16,866 nt of DNA from Patescibacteria group bacterium (lineage in GTDB: Bacteria > Patescibacteriota > Minisyncoccia > Phycocordibacterales > JBBUBG01): NCBI GenBank assembly GCA_040384765.1, contig JAZKIQ010000002.1, positions 1 to 16,866 on the forward strand, given 5' to 3'. The translations under genes were made by a program, and so were the position numbers. Below are positions 2,421-14,578 of this stretch, piece by piece (the first letter of the stretch is position 1; each line of letters opens with the position of its first letter). Below the pieces are notes generated by a model. The model had not been told where the DNA came from, made no database searches, and was given only the letters and a program-made list of their open reading frames with translations.

Positions 2421-3614
2421 ATGAGCAAAGGCTTCCTTTTAGGCTTTTTTAGGAGCAAAAGAGTATTTCTCGATCATGCTGCGGGTACCCCCGTAGCACC
2501 GGAGGTTCTTCGTGCAATGATTCCTCATCTCAAAGTGGGTGCAGGGAACCCAAGCTCGATACACAAAGAGGGGGTAGAGGCGAAAGGGGTGCTCGAGGCT
2601 GCACGTGGCTCGGTTGCGCGCATGGTGGGTGCGCATGTCGACGAGATCGTCTTTACGAGTGGTGGTACTGAGTCGAATAACCTTGCGATTGAAGGCGTTC
2701 TGCGCTCCGAGGCCGCACTCCGACACGGTAGGCATGTTGTTACCACTGCTTTTGAGCACCATTCGGTCAAGCGCGTACTTCTCGAGTTTGAGAAGGAGGG
2801 GTGGGAGGTTTCGTGGGTTATGCCTGATGATAAAGGTTTAATTGATCCACGCGCCATTTTTGCTGCAATTCGGCCTGACACGGTACTTGTCTCTGTCATT
2901 GGTGGACACAATGAGGTGGGGACGATACAGCCTCTTTCAACTATTGCAAAAGCGATTCGCAAGGCTCGCACGGGAGCTTTCCCTTATTTTCATACTGACG
3001 CGTGCCAGCTTGCTGGAGCAGTTCCATTTTCTGTTGTCTCCTCGGGAGTGGATCTTGCTTCGTTTAATTCCCATAAGATGTACGGTCCTTCGGGGGCGGG
3101 AGCGCTCTTTGTGCGCCGCTCGGTGGCTCTTCGGCCAGTGATACTTGGTGGTGGCCAGGAGAAGGGTGTACGAGCAGGGACAGAAAATCTGCCATCGCTC
3201 TTTGGCTTTGCCGCTGCATGCGAGCTCTTTAGAGAAGAAGGTGCTGTGCGGGAAAAGAGGATGACTAGGCTTCGTGACCAAGCTATAGAAAAACTACTTA
3301 CCATAGAGGGTTCTCATCTTGTCGGGGATCGGGCAGATCGTTTGCCGGGCCATATCAGCATCTCCTTTGCAGGCGTCGAGGCAGAACAGCTGGTGATCGA
3401 GCTTGATAGGGTGGGTATCGCAGTCTCTTCGGGGTCGGCCTGTTCCACCGGAGAGAATACTGCCTCCTATGCTATACTGGCCCTCAGAAAGTCCGAAGAG
3501 GAGGCAAAAGGTACTCTTCGCATAACACTCGGTCGAGAAACCCGAAAGGGCGATCTCGATAGGCTCATGCGCGCGCTCCCGCCGATACTCAAAAAGCTCC
3601 GAAGATTCAGCTGA
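2421..3614 (+). CDS. iscS: Cysteine desulfurase (IscS/NifS, group I)
   Basis: FLDHAAGTP, GNPSSIH, FTSGGTESNN, HTDACQ, SHKMYGP (PLP lysine), SSGSACS (catalytic Cys). Start moved to ATG 2421 to avoid overlap with the divergent gene. Confidence 0.92.
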   Translation: MSKGFLLGFFRSKRVFLDHAAGTPVAPEVLRAMIPHLKVGAGNPSSIHKEGVEAKGVLEAARGSVARMVGAHVDEIVFTSGGTESNNLAIEGVLRSEAALRHGRHVVTTAFEHHSVKRVLLEFEKEGWEVSWVMPDDKGLIDPRAIFAAIRPDTVLVSVIGGHNEVGTIQPLSTIAKAIRKARTGAFPYFHTDACQLAGAVPFSVVSSGVDLASFNSHKMYGPSGAGALFVRRSVALRPVILGGGQEKGVRAGTENLPSLFGFAAACELFREEGAVREKRMTRLRDQAIEKLLTIEGSHLVGDRADRLPGHISISFAGVEAEQLVIELDRVGIAVSSGSACSTGENTASYAILALRKSEEEAKGTLRITLGRETRKGDLDRLMRALPPILKKLRRFS

Positions 3615-3770: not shown

Positions 3771-6434
3771 ATGGTCCCTTTTCACAATTTCACATCGAAG
3801 GCGCGAGAAGCGGTACGGAAGGCGCACGAGCTTGCTATTGAGCGGGGCCAGAACCAGGTAAACCCTGTCCATCTTCTTCTCTCGCTAATTCTCAGCGACG
3901 ACAGCCCGATCCTCACTATTCTCGAGAAGCTCGAAGTCGACACTATTCTCCTTACCGATTACCTCGTAGACTCTATCGAATCGCCAGATGGCGCAGCGGT
4001 CCTTTCTCCTGCCTATCAGATATATCTCACACCTGAGCTTGTTCGGGTTCTTGATACCGCAGGCAAAATTACGAGCGCGATGAAGGAGGAGTTTGTATCG
4101 CTCGAGCACCTCTTCCTCTCGCTCCTTGAGGTGCCAAGCCAAGCTCGCGAGATTTTGGCGCGCTTTCGCGTGACCAAAGAAGGGGTCATTCGCTCGATGC
4201 AGGATACGAAAGAAGGAAAACCTGTTGAAGCTCACAGCTCCAAGAAGTCACGAGCGCTCGAGAAGTATGCAAAAAATCTCACCAGACTTGCAGCGCAAGA
4301 TAAGCTCGATCCTGTAATCGGTCGCGACGAAGAGATTCGTCGCATGATGCAGATCTTGACGCGTCGTACAAAAAACAACCCCATCTTGATCGGAGAGGCG
4401 GGTACTGGAAAGACTGCCGTTGTAGAAGGTCTCGCGATCCGCATTGCAAAAGGGGATGTGCCAGAGTCTCTCAAAAACAAAGAGGTCATCTCTCTCGACC
4501 TCGGATTCCTGGTTGCGGGGACAAAATATCGCGGTGAGTTTGAGGAGCGGCTCAAGACGGTCATGAAGGAGATTGAAAAGGCAGAAGGACGCATTATCCT
4601 CTTTATCGACGAGATTCATACTATCGTAGGTGCAGGAGCTGCAGAGGGTTCGATCGATGCGTCCAATATGCTGAAGCCTGCGCTCTCGCGTGGAGATCTT
4701 CGGGCGATCGGTGCGACCACCCTCAAGGAGTATCAGAAATATATTGAAAAAGATCCGGCCCTTACGCGCCGCTTTCAGCCGGTAAATGTAGGCGAGCCGT
4801 CGCAAGAAGATGCAATCGCTATTCTTCGCGGACTCAAGCCAAAATATGAGTTTCACCACGGAGTGCGTATTACCGATGAAGCCATTATCGCAGCCGTGAC
4901 CTTCTCGTCGCGATATATCTCAGACCGTTTTCTGCCGGACAAGGCGATCGACCTTATCGACGAAGCTGCTTCTGCGCTTCGCCTCGAGCTTGAGAACAAG
5001 CCTGCTGTGCTCGAAGACGCTGATCGTCGAGTGACTCGTCTGGAGATTGAGAAGGAGGCTCTTAAGAAAGAGGATGCAAAATCTGCAAAGACTCGCATTC
5101 GAGCAATCGACAAGGAGATAGGGGAGATCAAAGAAAGGAATTCAGATCTTTTGGATCGATGGCAGGCGGAAAAAGGGGGGATGACCGATGTGCGTGCACT
5201 CAAGAAAGAGCTCGAAGCCCTTCGCCGTCAAGCTGAGATAGCAGAGCAGAAGCAAGACCTCTCGCTTGCTGCGGAGATTCGCTATGGCAAGATTCCTGAA
5301 AAAGAGAAAGCCCTCCTTGCTCTTGAAACAAAGCTCCGGAAACGAGAAACGCTTCCTCGGCTCTTGCGAGAGGAGATTACCGATGAAGATATCGCAGGCG
5401 TTGTTGCCCGCTGGACCGGCATTCCGGTGTATCGAATGATCGAAGAGGAGTCCGCAAAGCTTACTCGCATAGAAGATGATCTGCGCAAGCGGGTCCTCGG
5501 CCAAGATGAAGCGATAAAGAAGATCTCGGATGCAGTGAAGCGATCTCGTGCAGGCATTTCGGATCCGGATCGGCCAATAGGCTCCTTTATCTTCCTTGGT
5601 CCGACGGGTGTAGGCAAGACAGAGCTCGCTCGTTCTCTTGCAGAGTTTATGTTCAACGATGAAAAGGCGATTATTCGCGTGGATATGTCCGAATATATGG
5701 AGCGCCATGCGGTGTCCAAGTTGATCGGCTCGCCCCCTGGCTATGTTGGCTATGATGAATCGGGTCAGCTCACCGAGCAGGTACGCCATCGCCCCTACTC
5801 GCTCATTCTCTTTGATGAGATCGAGAAGGCGCATCCAGAAGTGTTCAATATTCTCCTCCAGGTGCTTGATAACGGCCGCCTTACTGACTCAAAGGGTCGC
5901 ACCGTGAACTTCAAGAACACCATTATTATTCTCACGTCGAACATCGGTTCTGAGCATATCTTCAAGATGGAGTCGATGGGCTTTTCAAACGCCACATCGG
6001 TAGAGGAGTACGCTCGCACGAAAGATAAGATCCGTGAAGCGCTCAAGAACCAGTTTCGTCCCGAGTTCCTTAACCGTCTTGATGACATCATTGTCTTTGA
6101 TGTTCTCAAGCCTGAGGTGATAAAGGAGATTGTAGGTATCCAGATTGGCCTCGTTGAAAAACGCCTCGCAGGAAAGAATATCAAACTTTCCGTAGCTCCT
6201 GCCGCAAGCGAGCTTCTCGCAAAAGAAGGGTATGACGCGCATTATGGTGCACGACCGCTGAAGCGCGTAATCCAGACCAAAGTACTTAATCCAATTGCCG
6301 AGATGATTATCTCAAAAGCAATTATCGGTGGTGAGACTGTAGTTGCGGAGGCAAAGGATGGACAGATCGTGCTTCGCATTGAGAACGGGCAGAAGAGCCC
6401 CATCCGAGCGGCTACGCGAACGAAGAAGGAGTAA
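3771..6434 (+). CDS. clpB: ATP-dependent chaperone ClpB
   Basis: Clp N domain, NBD1 [15 protein letters not shown], long coiled-coil M domain ([10 protein letters not shown]), NBD2 [26 protein letters not shown]; 887 aa. Confidence 0.96.
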
Positions 6435-6444
6435 CTACAGATTT

Positions 6445-6543
6445 CAGAGATTAGAGTTTAGAGTTCAGTCAGAAAAAACAAAAAAGCACCCGCAGGGTGC
6501 TTTTTTGTTTGACTGAGCTCTAAACTCTGTAAGCTGATCTCTG
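6445..6543. terminator. Bidirectional terminator within an extended imperfect inverted repeat
   Basis: Core AAACAAAAAAGCACCC-GCA-GGGTGCTTTTTTGTTT between convergent genes; the arms extend outward to ~6445/6543. Confidence 0.8.
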
Positions 6544-6546
6544 CAT

Positions 6547-6978
6547 TTATGGCCAATACTGCGGATCTGTTTCTTCTCCAAAAAACTTTTTGTAATTCGC
6601 TTTTGTTTGGGTGTACGTTTCCGTCTCCCCGTACTTTGGCCTCAGCGAATTTTTGATCTCCTTCCACGTTTCCGGACCCGGGTCACCCATCTCGGGTGGA
6701 GGATTTGGTACGTGGTCGATAAATCCGCCAATATATTCTGCGAACTGCTTGTAAAATCGTGTGAACATGAGCATCTCGTGCCATGCGATGTCGACTCGGT
6801 CGGAGGGAGCTACCGCTTGGCCCGAGACGATGCACAAGGAGAGCATCCGTTTTGCTTCCCGCAGGAGTCCTTCACAGTAGCCGATAGGATAGTCGTAGAT
6901 TCGTGATATGCGAAGCGCGAGGAACGAAGGGACTTCGTATGCGTCAACTTCCGCGAGTGTAGGTGGTGTATGTTCCAT
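6547..6978 (-). CDS. DUF1399/glycine-rich-domain-protein (GRDP)-like domain protein, stand-alone
   Basis: PSDRVDIAWHEMLMFTRFYKQFAEYIGGFIDHVP and Y..TK.NY...FGE....YWP match the PS..VD..WH...L.T..Y..F....G.F..H.P signature. Confidence 0.75.
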   Translation of the reverse strand: MEHTPPTLAEVDAYEVPSFLALRISRIYDYPIGYCEGLLREAKRMLSLCIVSGQAVAPSDRVDIAWHEMLMFTRFYKQFAEYIGGFIDHVPNPPPEMGDPGPETWKEIKNSLRPKYGETETYTQTKANYKKFFGEETDPQYWP

Positions 6979-7404: not shown

Positions 7405-7488
7405 GCGCAGGTGGCGGAGTGGTCAATCGCAACTGGCTGTAAACCAGTCGACCTTTGGTCTTCGGGGGTTCGAATCCCTCCCTGCGCA
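7405..7488 (+). tRNA. tRNA-Tyr (GTA)
   Basis: Acceptor GCGCAGG/CCTGCGC plus A, anticodon arm ACTGG-CT GTA AA-CCAGT, long variable arm, GGGGG-TTCGAAT-CCCTC; no encoded CCA. Confidence 0.96.
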
Positions 7489-7797
7489 CAAACTGAAAAA
7501 GCCCCCGTAAAGGGGCTTTTTCATTTTGTGCGCAGAGCGAGCAAACTGCTTTGCTCGCGTGGAGGGGTTCGAACAGCGGAGCGTTGCCGAGCAAGCTTGC
7601 GAGGCCGCGAGCTGGTGCCCAGCCCGAATCGAGCGACGGCGCGATGAGAGGCGCGGGCGAATCCCTCAGAATAAGGCGACTGAGCGGGGTCGCGGGTTTT
7701 GCGAGCACGCAAAACCCTGTGACCGAATCCCTCCCTGCGCACTTTGCGAGATGGAAAAGTACCCGCCCCCGTTGCGGGCGAATCCCTCCCTGCGCAC
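7471..7797 (+). repeat. tRNA-Tyr 3'-end repeats: three direct 19-mers, one partial copy and one interrupted inverted copy
   Basis: CGAATCCCTCCCTGCGCAC at 7471-7489, 7724-7742 and 7779-7797; GCGGGCGAATCCCTC at 7653-7667 and 7774-7788; inverted copy at 7527-7535 plus 7561-7574. Confidence 0.9.
7482..7535 (+). terminator. Terminator-like hairpin following tRNA-Tyr
   Basis: TGAAAAAGCCCC/GGGGCTTTTTCA stem, extended by CTGCGCACAAA/TTTGTGCGCAG. Confidence 0.7.
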
Positions 7798-7958
7798 TCT
7801 TCCCTAATTTGACTTTCCCTCATTTACGTACAAGATGGATCTTTAGGGGGATCAACTAGAATCCTAATGGATTGAAGGGGGTCTCAGTGTTCCAGAATGA
7901 GTTTGGTCCTTTTGGTGCTGGTCTTTGCAAACTAGTAGCGAATGATTCAACTACGGAG

Positions 7959-9376: not shown

Positions 9377-10231
9377 TTAAAAAACTATTCGTGCGGTTAT
9401 GCCCGCAGGTACCGCGTATCCCTCTTTTGGGGTGAGTCCAAGTTCTTCAATGTGAACCACCGAAGGATTTTTAAAGACCGATTCAATCATGTTTGAAAGC
9501 GTCGTTTGTGAAAAGCCTGTGGTGTACGAACTGATGATAAGAAAAAGGGGCTTTTCTGAAAGTAGGCCACGAGCTCCCTCAATGAGCTCCAGGATATGAT
9601 CTTCTAATTTCCACACCTCTCCCTTTGCTCCGCGTCCATACGAAGGAGGGTCCATGACGATGGCATCATATTTTGCGCCTCGACGGGCCTCTTTGGCGAT
9701 AAATTTAAGAGCATCATCGACGAGCCAGCGCACGGGCTTGTCGGAAAGATTCGAAAGTGCTGAGTTCTCTTTTGCCCACTCTACGATGCCGCTCGCGGCA
9801 TCGAGGTGGGTTACTTCGGCCCCAGCGCTTGCTGCTGCAAGAGTTGCACCACCTGTGTAGGCAAAGAGGTTGAGAAGGCGAATAGGGCGCTTGGCGGCCC
9901 CTATCTGCGCGCGAATCCATTCCCAGTTTGCTGCCTGTTCAGGGAATATGCCTGTGTGTTTAAAGAGTGTCGGCTTTAGTTTGAAGGTGAGTGAGCCGTA
10001 TATCACGGTCCATTCGTCGGGCATGGCGCTCCCTTCACGCTTTTTCCATTTTCCCCCTTTCTCTCCGCGCGTAAACTGGGCATCAGCCTTTTCCCAAAGC
10101 TCGGGTTTTTGTTTTGACCACAGCGCTTGCGGTTCTGGCCGAGCAAGGATATATGCACCCCAGCGTTCAAGCTTTTGTTTGTCGCCCGAGTCTAGAAGTT
10201 CGTAGTCCGCCCAGTTTTGAGGAGTGATCAT
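9377..10231 (-). CDS. Class I SAM-dependent methyltransferase (RlmI/RlmK-like family)
   Basis: DYELLDSG...KLERWG...RPEPQALW, KHTGIFPEQ, LLNLFAYTGG (motif I), YDAIVMDPPSYGRG. Start taken as ATG 10231 because the ORF-track extension crosses the att junction. Confidence 0.9.
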   Translation of the reverse strand: MITPQNWADYELLDSGDKQKLERWGAYILARPEPQALWSKQKPELWEKADAQFTRGEKGGKWKKREGSAMPDEWTVIYGSLTFKLKPTLFKHTGIFPEQAANWEWIRAQIGAAKRPIRLLNLFAYTGGATLAAASAGAEVTHLDAASGIVEWAKENSALSNLSDKPVRWLVDDALKFIAKEARRGAKYDAIVMDPPSYGRGAKGEVWKLEDHILELIEGARGLLSEKPLFLIISSYTTGFSQTTLSNMIESVFKNPSVVHIEELGLTPKEGYAVPAGITARIVF

Positions 10232-10235
10232 GTTG

Positions 10236-10364
10236 CGAGGGCTAGTACAGGACGTTCGAACCTTTTGCGACGATCCTGCCAATGAAGAAACGATAGCAAC
10301 AATGAGGAAGATCGTCGAGGATATCAATCCTGATTCTGTTTCTAGTCATCTAAAATCTCCTTAA
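10236..10364 (+). pseudogene. Displaced C-terminal tail of the serine recombinase (RGLVQDVRTFCDDPANEE...KSP*)
   Basis: In the same frame across the GCGAGGGC core as the 14729-14840 fragment; 'V.DVRT' resembles tails I recall from CPR recombinases. Confidence 0.6.
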
Positions 10365-10701
10365 GCAACTGTTCAGGATCTTCGGACGCTCCACGTCCGG
10401 TCCATATATCCCACACATACCAGAGTCCCAGAAAGGCAACTGCGCTGATGTAAATCCCACGAAGCGTATCTGCGCTGATCATCCCAATATCGGGAAACGT
10501 CGATGAGATCGCTGGAATGGCCATAACCATTGCTACTAGTGCGTCACGTGGACGAACCTTTCTCTTCGTTGTGGACGAAAAGCGATGAAGTTTTAGGAGC
10601 AGTTCAGCTGTTTCTATCTTTATCCACGGGCGTTGTCGGTATGTCACCGTATGCCGCCGATGCGTTCCTGCTGGGCTCCTTTTTTGGGGTTTACCCGGCA
10701 T
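10342..10701 (-). CDS. Hypothetical 2-TM membrane protein (119 aa)
   Basis: Basic N-terminus; hydrophobic segments ALVAMVMAIPAISS and GIYISAVAFLGLWYVW; starts 2 nt after the upstream stop. Confidence 0.75.
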   Translation of the reverse strand: MPGKPQKRSPAGTHRRHTVTYRQRPWIKIETAELLLKLHRFSSTTKRKVRPRDALVAMVMAIPAISSTFPDIGMISADTLRGIYISAVAFLGLWYVWDIWTGRGASEDPEQLLKEILDD

Positions 10702-10703
10702 TG

Positions 10704-11243
10704 TTAGAGGTTGCTCTTTACCAGTGAATCTAGAATTCCCTTGAGCGCTGTAGCTTCGAATTCATTGATATCACGCGGAACGTAAATGGTGAATTTCGTG
10801 CCTGGTCGAAGTGAGAGCTCTATTCGATGCATGTCTGCTCCTGTGGATATGATCGGAGAATTCGGCGCTATTGTGCCCTCGGGTTCGACGGTGCTCTTGC
10901 CGCTCGCTGATTTCGATACACGCTTTACGGATTTATAATTCCAGCTAGCCATCTTTGTTGGATCTACTCCGTAACGGTTGAAGTCAGATACGGTCTTCGT
11001 TACTCGGGATCTATACGCGGCCAAAGAGCTGGCGCTCATCGATGCGCTATTGTGCCGGCATACATTCTGGTAAATGGGCTCAATATTAGCGGTGAATTTG
11101 TCCAGTGAGTCTCGTTCCTCATCGTTCAGTTCCTTCTCAAACAGTTTCAGTGCTGCTCGCAGACCTTGAGCGGTACTCTCGGGGTACTTTCGGTTACGTA
11201 CAGCTGTATCTACGAAGGCGTATAGATCTTGAAATGTCGGCAT
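10704..11243 (-). CDS. Hypothetical protein (179 aa), integrase core-binding (SAM-like) N-domain plus small beta-beta-alpha C-domain
   Basis: YPESTAQGLRAALKLF and MSASSLAAYRSRV helices, S/K-rich linker, HRIELSLRPGTKFTIYVPRDINEFEA. ATG 11243 follows a promoter; the ORF-track extension is likely non-coding. Confidence 0.75.
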   Translation of the reverse strand: MPTFQDLYAFVDTAVRNRKYPESTAQGLRAALKLFEKELNDEERDSLDKFTANIEPIYQNVCRHNSASMSASSLAAYRSRVTKTVSDFNRYGVDPTKMASWNYKSVKRVSKSASGKSTVEPEGTIAPNSPIISTGADMHRIELSLRPGTKFTIYVPRDINEFEATALKGILDSLVKSNL

Positions 11244-11270: not shown

Positions 11271-11306
11271 AGTATAATCCAACACTTCTAATTGTCTATA
11301 TAGACA
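11271..11306 (-). promoter_or_regulatory. Promoter with a perfect 14-bp palindrome over the -35 box
   Basis: Minus strand TAGACA (11293-11298), 16 nt, TATACT (11271-11276); palindrome TGTCTATATAGACA at 11293-11306. Confidence 0.65.
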
Positions 11307-11396
11307 GATAGACGCAGATGTATTGTAAGTGCTGCGTAGGCGCGATGTGGATACTCTGTCTGCATGACATATAGATATATCGAAGAAGGACCTCTT

Positions 11397-11507
11397 ATGA
11401 ATTGCCCCGACCGGGCTCAGGAGTGGTTTGAGATCGTCCTTGAGGTGATACTGCAGGAAGAGCGAGTAGCTGGAACGATGGCGGATGGTAGCGCGCACTC
11501 AGTATGA
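11397..11507 (+). CDS. 36-aa ORF coupled to the recombinase start
   Basis: MNCPDRAQEWFEIVLEVILQEERVAGTMADGSAHSV*; GAAGGA upstream; stop overlaps ATG 11504 (ATGA). Confidence 0.45.
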   Translation: MNCPDRAQEWFEIVLEVILQEERVAGTMADGSAHSV

Positions 11508-11635
11508 GCGGGCACATGCGGAGATTCGTGGTAGCGTACTCGCGAGTTTCCTCGTCCCACCAGAGCGAACGCGGAGCATCACTCTTCGAGCAGCGTGCCG
11601 CAATCGAGCGAGTGGCAGATCGTGACGGTGCTGAT
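11504..11635 (+). pseudogene. N-terminal fragment of a large serine recombinase
   Basis: VAYSRVSSSHQSERGASLFEQRAAIERVADRDG matches the Y-x-RVS...Q...G.SL..Q catalytic motif. Similarity stops after ~43 codons although the frame stays open to 12226. Confidence 0.8.
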
Positions 11636-11690
11636 GCCAATTCAATCTTCGACACCTTCGGCAGCATGTTGCTTTGTCAGAGTTCAATGA

Positions 11691-11910
11691 ACGTACGTGA
11701 ATCCCTCAGAAGATATCGGGGAGGCGTGGAAGGTTGTTCGGCGATTCGGCCAAGACAACTGCGCAAGTACGAGCCAGATTGGCTTAGAGACGTTCAACAC
11801 GGTGCACTGGGCCAAGTCGCGAGGATGACTGGTGGAACATGCGAGGCCACGGTTCTTGCCCTTAGTCGCGCAATTCGGGCCGAACTCGGACTCAATCCCC
11901 TGGAAGACCT
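11691..11910 (+). pseudogene. Possible frameshifted phage ABA-sandwich/BC1872-like fragment
   Basis: NPSEDIGEAWKVV in one frame and ATVLALSRAIRAELG in another resemble the P(S/T).DI..AW.VV and A..LAI.RA.L motifs. Confidence 0.35.
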
Positions 11911-12419
11911 GCGGGTCTCCTCCCTTGCTCTCCCCCTAAGAGATTATCGAATGACTCAGGGGGGGCGCACATCTCCGGAGAAGGTTCACCGAAGCGCGTT
12001 GCGTAGTGGAGCCTTGGTGCTACAAGAAGCTGCATTGATGCACCAGCTCTATGCATTTCCACGGCCCCCGGATTCTTGTGCCGATAGACCTCGTTCCTTC
12101 GATGGAAAGCCTCGATCGTTGTCAGTTCTTCGACGCCACCAGGCGCTTGCGAGGTACCTTTGTTCGAGATATGAGGCTCGCAAAGTAGAGAGGGGCTGGC
12201 TTGAGAACTGGCAGTTAAGCAGCTGAAACGTGCGACTATAACCCCAGCTCAGTACAAGGAAATGTGTGGATTTCAAGTGGGAGCTCGGTCCGGTGCGGAC
12301 AAAACGGGTTGGCTGCCCAATGTGGCACCAATCAGCAACCCGTATGGCGACTAATTTGACTTACTCATGAGGCGCGATATGATGCTTATAGATAGGCTTG
12401 GTGATGTTTACAATTCACA

Positions 12420-12857: not shown

Positions 12858-13204
12858 TCCTGTATCTCCTCCGGGACTGATGCAATGAACCACGCTGATT
12901 TTTTGAGCGTGGTTTTCTTCGTCTTGGTCTGTAAGCCTTTCTCTCCTGAGATGGATTGGAAGGAACCGGCAAGACTGCTCGACTCGACCCTGCTTCGATC
13001 ATCTTCTTGAGGTAGTTACCGCCGCTCGGAGGCGCAGGTTGACTTGAGCGGGTTCAACCGAGAGCCGTGCAAGGGCACGAGTTCAAGGCCGACGACTCGC
13101 TTTGGCAGATCTTGGAATTGCCGTCAGGCTTGATGATGCTCGGGGCGTTGTTACGCGGCGCGCTCTGCCCGGGGGTCTGCAGCAAATTTGAACCGGGTGA
13201 GTTT

Positions 13205-13244
13205 CGTTCCGCGTTCCCTGCGTAGGGGTGGGAACGCGGGAACG
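13205..13244. repeat. Inverted repeat CGTTCCGCGTTCCC-11 nt-GGGAACGCGGGAACG
   Basis: The arms match except for one indel, and each arm holds two GTTCC units. Confidence 0.7.
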
Positions 13245-14050
13245 GTTTCGTGGGTGAGCGCATGACTCGGCGAGGCTCGTTTGAATTTGAAGAGGATGCT
13301 CGTGCTGGATGATAGGTTCCGTGACCTCGCCGCGGAAGATCTCGGCCAGACGGCCGTGATCCTCGACCCACCGGACAGCGGCGGCGCCCTCCACGACGAG
13401 CGCGCGGCATCTGGCGGCCTCCCTGGTGGTTGCACGACAAAGGGAGCCGGGATATACTGCGCAAGTCCGGTCATCCCCTGGTTGAACGGATAGGTCCTTG
13501 TTTCGCCAAGCTTCCAACGGCCGCGGCGGAACGGGACCTTTATTTTATCGAACCCTCCTGCTTCCCCGATCATCAGTCCGACTGGCGCATCAGCGTGCCA
13601 CGTCGGCTTTTTTGTTCATGCTACCGTCCGCATGCGAGCTCAGCCACTCGTCGATCAACATTCTTGAGGTATCAATCAACAATCCAACGATTAGAAGACG
13701 CGGACGTTTTTGTCCCAGTGCGGTATATCTAAAGGGCGTAGCGAGTTCCTTGATCTGCGGAAGCCCAAGAGGAGTGACATCCGAATGCCGCACGACCCGC
13801 GTCGCCAAGCCCGGGGCATTGGCCTGGAGCCGAGCCCTAGTCCCGAACCGCTTCCAGGATTGGAAGAACCCAACTCCGCGCACAACCAGGATTCTCAGGC
13901 GCCATTACAGAATTCGCGCGATCGGTCGATGACTGCGTCAGATCTGCACCAGAGCTTCAGCGCGAGCGGGAAAGGACGGGGCGCGTCAAAAAGTGTACAG
14001 TAGGACGCGCCCGAATCTGATACAATGCTTCAATAAGTAACTTCTTACCC

Positions 14051-14578
14051 ATGCCAATCCAAGAGTCTACGAGCTTCGTCAGCAGAGCAACTATCTATAC
14101 GTTTTCTTTCGAAATGCTCGTCGTGGGCGTTGTTGGCATTGGCGCTGCTGGATTGTATCTCTACAATACGATCCACCTTTTTGACGCGTACCCCCTCACT
14201 GAGAGCTTGCGAGAACTTCTGTGTGGACTCGGAATCCTTGCGTCCGCGGTGTTGTTTCTTGCGACGTCAAGGCAAGCGTTCCGGCTTCGCACCGCTGAGC
14301 CAGAGCGCCTAGCGCATAAAACGTACCGGATAGCGCTCTTGCTTGTTGTTGCAGGATCAATCCTCGCCTACGCGGGAATCGCCTACTTCGTTTCGTTAGT
14401 CGGCGTGCTTCCTACCGGGTGCCTTTGGGGAGCCCCCTGCATCCAGCAAACCCTACCGCTGTGGCCGCTATTGACAATCCATGTAATAGCCGCCTCGGTC
14501 TGCTCCACGCCAGCGGTAACTTTGTCGATCTTGGAAAAGTGCGGAACCTCTAGGGGGCCACAAGATAGTTCCGTGTAG
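14051..14578 (+). CDS. Hypothetical 4-TM membrane protein (island cargo)
   Basis: 175 aa with four hydrophobic segments; extended -10 TGATACAAT at 14018-14026. Confidence 0.6.
   Translation: MPIQESTSFVSRATIYTFSFEMLVVGVVGIGAAGLYLYNTIHLFDAYPLTESLRELLCGLGILASAVLFLATSRQAFRLRTAEPERLAHKTYRIALLLVVAGSILAYAGIAYFVSLVGVLPTGCLWGAPCIQQTLPLWPLLTIHVIAASVCSTPAVTLSILEKCGTSRGPQDSSV

Follow-up and report, generated by a model that had tools for sequence, protein, structure and literature searches.

A stand-alone core-binding-domain protein, candidate autoregulating repressor with variable downstream genes in Patescibacteria

Two small genes, 2 nt apart on the minus strand of a Patescibacteria contig, raise the question of whether they form a dedicated defence or toxin-antitoxin cassette, as an earlier note on this DNA had proposed, or a looser arrangement. 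The stretch that was analyzed, here called the window, comprises 16,866 nt. As had been claimed, both frames are uninterrupted: the first gene, P0001, occupies positions 10704-11243 (minus strand, 179 aa) and the second, P0002, positions 10342-10701 (minus strand, 119 aa). A longer P0001 of 264 aa starting at 11498, as listed by an ORF finder, was rejected; the extension scores -0.24 bits per codon, and we set the start at the ATG at 11243 because homologs begin there.

The structure model of P0001 (pLDDT 85) begins with a helical domain, from which a disordered linker leads to a beta-beta-alpha tail. Residues 1-93 (10965-11243, minus strand) fold as the core-binding (CB, SAM-like) helical bundle of tyrosine recombinases and are predicted to bind DNA. 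In VIA-align, ranks 1-19 are all taken by integrase- or recombinase-type chains, the best being 3nrw (Z 9.7, rmsd 2.2 over 87 residues), and the first unrelated row has a Z of 5.8. Foldseek, which the earlier note had recommended, returned no match at E<=0.001 in PDB or BFVD, and a sequence search of the PDB with P0001 gave none either. Family statistics were calculated on 150 sequences, those listed of 736 cluster representatives. In these, Y77 and R80 are invariant, and positions 18, 19, 29, 33, 78, 80 and 83 are basic in 78-100% of the sequences. The conserved basic and aromatic residues sit on two CB helices, and in integrases these two helices face the DNA.

Behind the CB domain, 86 residues are left for the disordered linker and a 43-aa module. 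The linker (residues 101-136, 10836-10943, minus strand; pLDDT<50 at 115-133) is poorly conserved, with a mean top-residue frequency of 0.25 versus 0.58 in the CB domain. The terminal beta-hairpin plus helix (residues 137-179, 10707-10835, minus strand; pLDDT 86) is a putative oligomerisation domain. Fold matches of this module are weak (best Z 4.3; Z 3.7 to residues 285-326 of P1 ParB; Foldseek E 2.5 and 4.2 to the Lsr2 dimerisation domain, below significance) and some of them are to oligomerisation modules, so that a role of the tail can only be suggested. Neither the R-K-H-R-H/W-Y residues of a tyrosine-recombinase catalytic domain nor a Phage_integrase match was found in P0001. The resemblance to an integrase core-binding domain lacking its catalytic partner, noted before from the letters alone, is thus recovered in the model, in which P0001 is a CB-domain fold without catalytic domain. 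The name 'site-specific recombinase XerD', automatically assigned to three homologs, is an over-call, as a catalytic domain is lacking.

P0001 belongs to an unnamed family distantly related to phrog_2602. The search with P0001 yielded 77 matches at E<=1e-3 (P0001 itself counted), and the family comprises 736 cluster representatives at the same threshold; named close homologs stem from Patescibacteria. The 219 family proteins retrieved range from 83 to 212 aa in length and no fusion occurred among 7999 candidates of 372-2000 aa (weak evidence, with lengths of 315-371 aa outside the range), and on these grounds we regard the catalytic domain as absent from the family. A literature description of the family was not found, and subscription papers and supplements, e.g. 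candidate lists from defence screens, could name a member. The statement that the pair cannot be matched to a named system proved correct for the PADLOC 2.0 library (dated 2023), where neither P0001 nor P0002 has a match at E<=1; nine P0001 homologs and two distant relatives likewise matched 0 families.

A single GTDB scan with one peptide pattern, biased to close relatives, provided 33 homolog loci, which together with the window make up a set of 34. A relative of P0002 accompanies the P0001 homolog in 0 of the 33 (best tblastn E 0.99, best phmmer E 0.91), 32 of which are informative downstream since L015 ends about 50 nt past the gene. As judged from these genomes, P0001 and P0002 are not a conserved pair, and the fixed two-gene system of the earlier note is not supported; missing co-occurrence is one of the two outcomes which that note had itself listed as speaking against its proposal. 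At L015, the homolog's promoter and first codons appear twice around a run of N (5817-6010), probably an assembly artefact.

In a tree of the homologs (neighbour-joining with 40 bootstraps, not maximum likelihood), 22 of the 34 loci fall into one clade (40/40 bootstraps) and are syntenic in the region of a tRNA cluster and rny. Downstream of the homolog lies a convergent rny (10 loci), a ZIP transporter gene (9 loci) or else YibE/F, a convergent purL or the contig end; where the convergent rny follows (10/22), there is therefore no cargo. The non-clade set, consisting of 11 loci plus the window, occupies different sites throughout. In 7 of these 12, a downstream ORF overlaps the homolog, is fused to it or begins no more than 5 nt away, and these ORFs represent five unrelated kinds: P0002 in the window, a 62-aa two-helix protein at L001 with a fused, 51% identical copy at L005, a YjzC-like protein at L008 and L011, an NYN nuclease at L031 and a 150-aa protein with an N-terminal hydrophobic stretch at L032. 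Across loci, the pattern suggests a stable head gene with cargo that is absent or swappable.

The two-helix protein is the only membrane partner met twice. Its ORF at L001 (4013-4201) overlaps the end of the homolog, while the L005 homolog (5968-6729) reads in frame into the matching segment; the fusion may be a frameshift or assembly error because P0026 matches its first part and ends at 193 aa. L008 and L011 lie in defence islands, adjoining Type IIG restriction-modification genes and other PADLOC matches (a raw count from two loci). Together with L031, they constitute a subgroup (L008 6001-6564, L011 5297-5929, L031 5986-6567; 40/40 bootstraps) that has a different C-terminal module, defence-type neighbours and hardly any of the upstream half-sites described below. 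Neighbours were chosen for scanning with a preference for non-clade loci (Pfam, 120 of about 260 listed ORFs; PADLOC, 51), and Pfam detected no tyrosine-recombinase catalytic domain in these 120 or in 16 window ORFs. L003, L007, L015, L024, L027, L028 and others are titled Saccharibacteria and show Staskawiczbacteria synteny and clade membership or fall among Parcubacteria-type loci; the titles may be loose because synteny and protein clade fit other groups.

P0002 (10342-10701, minus strand) is an orphan small protein in the position of a downstream passenger. It probably encodes a protein: of 5000 shuffled sequences, 26 contained an open frame as long as its 119 codons, and none of the five other frames reaches its codon score of 0.05. 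The codon score is -0.09 for residues 1-59 and 0.19 for residues 60-119, and a form of 60 aa beginning at M60 is listed in the ESM Atlas; translation may start at M1 or at M60 (ATG at 10524), giving 119 or 60 aa. The two helices are moderately hydrophobic (Kyte-Doolittle 1.61 at 54-72 and 1.34 at 82-100, with the start uncertain), a layout that presumably resembles a widespread unnamed family of two-helix membrane proteins of about 110-120 aa. Homologs were not found by a word-index search among proteins of 65-209 aa, in the Atlas (best feature score 0.80, which is chance level) or by tblastn against plasmids and phages, where E was at least 0.3. An ORF on a Paenibacillus plasmid (L034) gave E 7 at first and E 5.5e-4 in a small re-search, and was not accepted because the re-search used a locus picked by that same search. 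The P0001-P0002 combination is probably a one-off.

The genes had also been credited with a promoter of their own. A promoter-like site is present at 11271-11298 (minus strand; -35 TAGACA, -10 TATACT, 16-nt spacing, 10/12 matches), but with two such sites against 1.6 expected it is at chance level when taken alone. Its -35 box is covered by an array of five AGA(T/C)(A/G) half-sites, a candidate operator at 11293-11320 (sites at 11293, 11302, 11306, 11310 and 11316) that includes the palindrome TGTCTATATAGACA over the -35 box and is the sole 40-nt stretch with at least four such sites in the 16.9 kb of the window. In the 110 nt upstream of P0001 homologs, AGATA is the top enriched 5-mer: it occurs at 29/34 loci, as against 33/161 promoters from the same loci that served as controls. 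Convergent half-site pairs are found at 21/34 loci as compared to 2/161 controls and 0/69 AT-matched controls, and pairs with an exact 6-nt spacer at 8/34 loci and in 0/161 controls. For L006, L009, L017 and L033, inspection by eye places a TTG-type -35 in the 6-nt spacer region, 17 nt from a TATAAT-like box. The array of L010 is situated about 150-240 nt upstream of the start, past an inserted palindromic repeat. ZIP, pyk, rny, clpP and tig promoters carry no arrays (0-3 sites per 110 nt, mostly 0), and a Fur/Zur reading of the motif, prompted by the ZIP neighbour, was dropped, as arrays go with the CB gene and not with ZIP promoters.

The motif was found post hoc and widened from AGATA to AGA(T/C)(A/G) once the window, which itself has a single strict AGATA, had been inspected; of the 104 half-sites at the other 33 loci, 18 belong to the wider types. 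Collapsed at 60% protein identity, convergent pairs occur in only about 3 of 11 independent groups (window, L002, clade). Strict AGATA at the 12 non-clade loci amounts to 8 against 6.5 expected, a value reached by 58 of 200 shuffles, and L005, L008, L011, L014, L022, L031 and L032 have 0-1 upstream sites each. The upstream cluster is strictly the densest 60-nt stretch in only 9/34 loci, and spacers in the window are 4, 8, 12 and 18 nt with the 6-nt form absent.

Inside the gene, AGATA reaches 133 in the 22-locus clade versus 83.5 after synonymous shuffling and ranks 3 of 512 5-mers, compared to ranks of 234-472 in five neighbour genes; relatedness of the sequences inflates the z-scores within genes, and control genes reach z 3-11 for other 5-mers. 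In the linker-coding DNA of the clade, phased AGATA/AGACA copies lie 9-12 nt apart, some in other reading frames, and are followed by TATCT (L006 6322-6413, with equivalents in L007, L009, L010, L012, L013, L017, L021, L024, L030 and L033). It is possible that this in-gene array is an internal operator that shapes the KD-rich linker. Another word conserved in the same DNA, ACACCCCTGT, is frequently present in two copies per gene (L030 6319-6404, L021 3811-3830, the first position in L021 carrying the variant ACAGGGGTGT), and its 5-mers rank at the top alongside AGATA.

We give a probability of roughly one half to the reading that P0001 acts on its own as a CB-domain repressor of its own promoter, at the head of an operon whose passenger can be exchanged. 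The CB domain would read the AGA(T/C)(A/G) half-sites, and the beta-beta-alpha module, in place of the lost catalytic domain, would join P0001 monomers. Convergent half-sites flanking or covering the -35 and -10 boxes of the gene's own promoter could then be bound together, and the occupied array would block the promoter and hold P0001 and its transcript-mates at a low, buffered level. P0002 would be a passenger recruited behind P0001 in this genome, co-transcribed with it and not obligatory.

By analogy, P0001 would work like FliZ or MrpR, integrase-fold proteins turned repressors. FliZ of E. coli is described, in the accessible part of the report, as a repressor of about 180 aa with an integrase core-binding-like domain and no recombinase activity that binds promoter elements (PMC3367168). 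Its integrase-like region is C-terminal and reads the sigmaS extended -10, whereas the CB domain of P0001 is N-terminal and followed by the beta-beta-alpha tail; FliZ family profiles in Pfam or NCBIfam did not match P0001. MrpR (YopR) of SPbeta/phi3T appears in the available sections of two papers as a tyrosine-recombinase-derived repressor that acts on a repeated promoter DNA element (PMC10516654, PMC8612738). The CB domains of MrpR and SroF align with P0001 at Z 5.4 and 6.0, but MrpR, with about 320 aa, has retained an inactive domain of the catalytic fold, of which P0001 has no trace. Tyrosine recombinases (lambda Int, XerC/D/A, IntI) have the CB fold in common with P0001 (Z 7.3-9.7) and possess a catalytic domain that P0001 lacks and has no room for. 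P0001 belongs to neither FliZ nor MrpR, nor is it an integrase.

Distant relatives reside in prophages. The phrog_2602 profile matches P0001 at E 1.8e-4 over residues 22-177, as well as 74 of the 150 listed family members at E<=0.01 (best member E 2.9e-10). Direct tblastn of P0001, P0183 or P0150 against phages and plasmids gave no match, and P0128 alone reached lambdoid prophage relatives (E 4). In hhalign, where E-values refer to single pairs picked by a prior search, the family aligns over the full length with Sap23 of VT2-Sakai (probability 95, E 3.8e-8, 158 columns); profile comparison likewise gave a full-length match (probability 95) to a gene in a Salmonella phage-satellite-like element. 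Sap23 (Sp5 ORF23) is identical to ECs_1184 (173/173 residues) and has relatives in 50 phage records, with an identity of >=99% in 44. The gene lies between cI and N in VT2-Sakai, phi-8, Oslo and SH2026Stx1, apparently also in a Proteus prophage, and directly after an integrase-like gene in Yersinia phage YP3. A match from an Oscillospiraceae phage (L037) was discarded; it falls inside a 510-aa gene.

These relatives and P0001 share full-length homology and the sequence of CB domain, linker and small module. They differ in identity (about 20%), in location (the prophage cI-N slot versus the Patescibacteria chromosome for P0001), in having another upstream inverted repeat, and in lacking a coupled membrane ORF, none of which was found in six prophage or island loci. 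In four of the six, hydrophilic ORFs of 40-57 aa begin 150-175 nt downstream and are candidates for regulated cargo. Small basic ORFs follow the relatives at L035 (3567-3689), L039 (3194-3319), L042 (3175-3348) and L038 (about 3310-3450). The AGA(T/C)(A/G) array is absent upstream of the prophage relatives. An inverted repeat, CAAGACT-N2-AGTCTTG, is located 74 nt upstream of the VT2-Sakai and Oslo genes (L035, about 2798-2813; equivalent in L039) and partly kept in the Proteus locus, and may be regarded as a candidate operator of the prophage branch. The accessible part of one study names two ORFs that resisted deletion from an Sp5 lysogen, ECs1184 being one of them; its deletion appeared lethal, and no conserved domain is reported for it there (PMC5155283). 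In the portion available of another, ECs1184 is not a strong RNA binder (PMC7618764). Being undeletable and not a strong RNA binder fits a DNA-binding repressor or antitoxin; with about 20% identity, the function of ECs1184 need not carry over to P0001.

Several other explanations have to be weighed against an autoregulated operon with exchangeable cargo. Proteins of the P0001 family could act as antitoxins at the level of transcription and shut down any small toxic gene behind them, here P0002, with loss of the repressor, e.g. upon phage shut-off of host expression, freeing the cargo. Such a role is in line with the five kinds of coupled or fused ORFs at 7 of 12 non-clade loci, with the Type IIG restriction-modification genes and other PADLOC matches beside L008 and L011, with the failure to delete ECs1184 (PMC5155283) and with the cI-N slot of the relatives, a known hotspot that holds rexAB and bstA according to the accessible text of PMC8585504. 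We nevertheless consider it unlikely in view of the convergent rny (10) or ZIP transporter (9) at a fixed position in the 22-locus clade, the 0-1 operator sites at the defence-type loci L008, L011 and L031, and the six prophage or island loci without a coupled membrane ORF. In a wider version, a catalytically amputated integrase bound to half-site arrays that resemble recombination sites, at its own promoter and in the clade also within the gene, would silence any recruited toxic small gene in Patescibacteria and lambdoid prophages alike, which is doubtful to the same degree; equally tentative is the idea that it would amount to a cargo-independent antitoxin or abortive-infection switch and account for the undeletable ECs1184. 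The dedicated abortive-infection or toxin-antitoxin system of P0001 and P0002 favoured by the earlier note draws on the 2-nt spacing, the one promoter, the two hydrophobic helices of P0002 and the recombinase remnant close by. It has become decidedly improbable, as P0002 relatives are missing from the 33 loci and from the other homolog searches, PADLOC has no match and both start and membrane topology of P0002 are uncertain. A looser form of that proposal survives in the coupled or fused ORFs at 7 of 12 non-clade loci, two of these loci lying in defence islands, and in the failure to delete a prophage relative (PMC5155283).

A single-gene anti-phage factor with cis self-immunity was considered as well, in which P0001 would bind invading DNA and the array would titrate or disarm it. 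The model is BstA-aba, for which the part of the report at hand describes a KilA-N-like domain, proven abortive infection and a cognate DNA element at the start of the gene (PMC8585504). Like bstA, the prophage relatives stand alone downstream of cI, one relative is found in a phage-satellite-like element, and the clade has sites upstream of and inside the gene just as aba, in that description, spans the bstA start (PMC8585504). The shared slot is an analogy of position only, the fold is CB and not KilA-N, synteny is fixed on the chromosome in 22 loci, and neither P0001 nor nine family members nor the prophage relatives match PADLOC; moreover, a defence effector should be deletable and ECs1184, by the available account, was not (PMC5155283), all of which renders this option improbable. 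A nucleoid-associated bridging protein or silencer following the logic of Lsr2 or ParB, with sites genome-wide and the promoter array as one of many, would suit a DNA-binding domain joined by a flexible linker to a small beta-beta-alpha module and the weak matches to the Lsr2 dimerisation domain and P1 ParB. We judge it highly improbable, since arrays are dense at the gene itself and not across the flanks, the distribution is patchy with differing insertion sites, and the fold matches stay under significance. Least credible of all is that P0001 supplies one half of a tyrosine recombinase encoded in two pieces, or assists mobilisation in the way of MpsB of SGI1, which the accessible part of the source presents as a stand-alone SAM-like CB protein working with the catalytic-domain protein MpsA (PMC9299015). 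Inverted half-sites with a 6-nt spacer are akin to core-type recombination sites, and the Yersinia phage relative adjoins an integrase-like gene; yet the half-sites sit on a promoter, and among the ORFs scanned (120 of about 260 listed neighbours, 16 in the window) there is neither a catalytic domain nor any partner corresponding to MpsA.

What the analysis mainly yields is the family with its candidate operator, and the P0001-P0002 pair matters less. For an unnamed family of 736 cluster representatives in Patescibacteria there is now a fold, a candidate for its DNA site and a function that can be tested, and a domain is assigned to ECs1184, a prophage gene described as undeletable, for which the accessible part of the original report gives no conserved domain (PMC5155283). 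Should family members indeed silence toxic genes, the genes located right behind them could be mined for new toxins or defence effectors.

The surroundings of the pair had been described as a tRNA island, otherwise decayed. From translations and with Pfam support, we take the window to contain rbfA, infB, clpB, a pyrH-like gene, miaA and rpmG, accompanied by three tRNAs, the only matches in an Rfam scan. Assignment to a tRNA island did not withstand inspection: the 3' end of tRNA-Trp is not duplicated as an att site in the window, where its longest match has 11 nt, the ORF pair is 3.6 kb away from tRNA-Trp, and an integrase was not seen in the window beyond a weak, divergent remnant with a serine-recombinase-like N-terminus (11504-12226, plus strand; Resolvase E 0.06, phrog_95 E 0.0048, codon score -0.17). 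Decay applies in part. ORFs at 11.5-14.0 kb have negative codon scores, and this stretch, with the recombinase remnant, looks non-coding or decayed, but the GC content of the ORF pair (48-50%) is host-like and a 175-aa ORF is intact. The latter (14051-14578, plus strand) encodes four hydrophobic helices, has a negative codon score and is without significant family match. Positions 13001-13500, with 62% GC versus about 51% and overlapping ORFs of no family, are possibly a foreign remnant. Island DNA found no match in plasmids, and neither did 94 six-frame pieces in 43 loci. An RlmI/RlmK-type methyltransferase gene (9377-10240, minus strand) is co-oriented with the pair and lies 101 nt past the P0002 stop, with no minus-strand terminator seen in between. 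Elsewhere in the window, the tRNA-Tyr 3' end is present three times (7471-7490, 7724-7743 and 7779-7798), together with a hairpin with 24-bp arms at 7482-7535.
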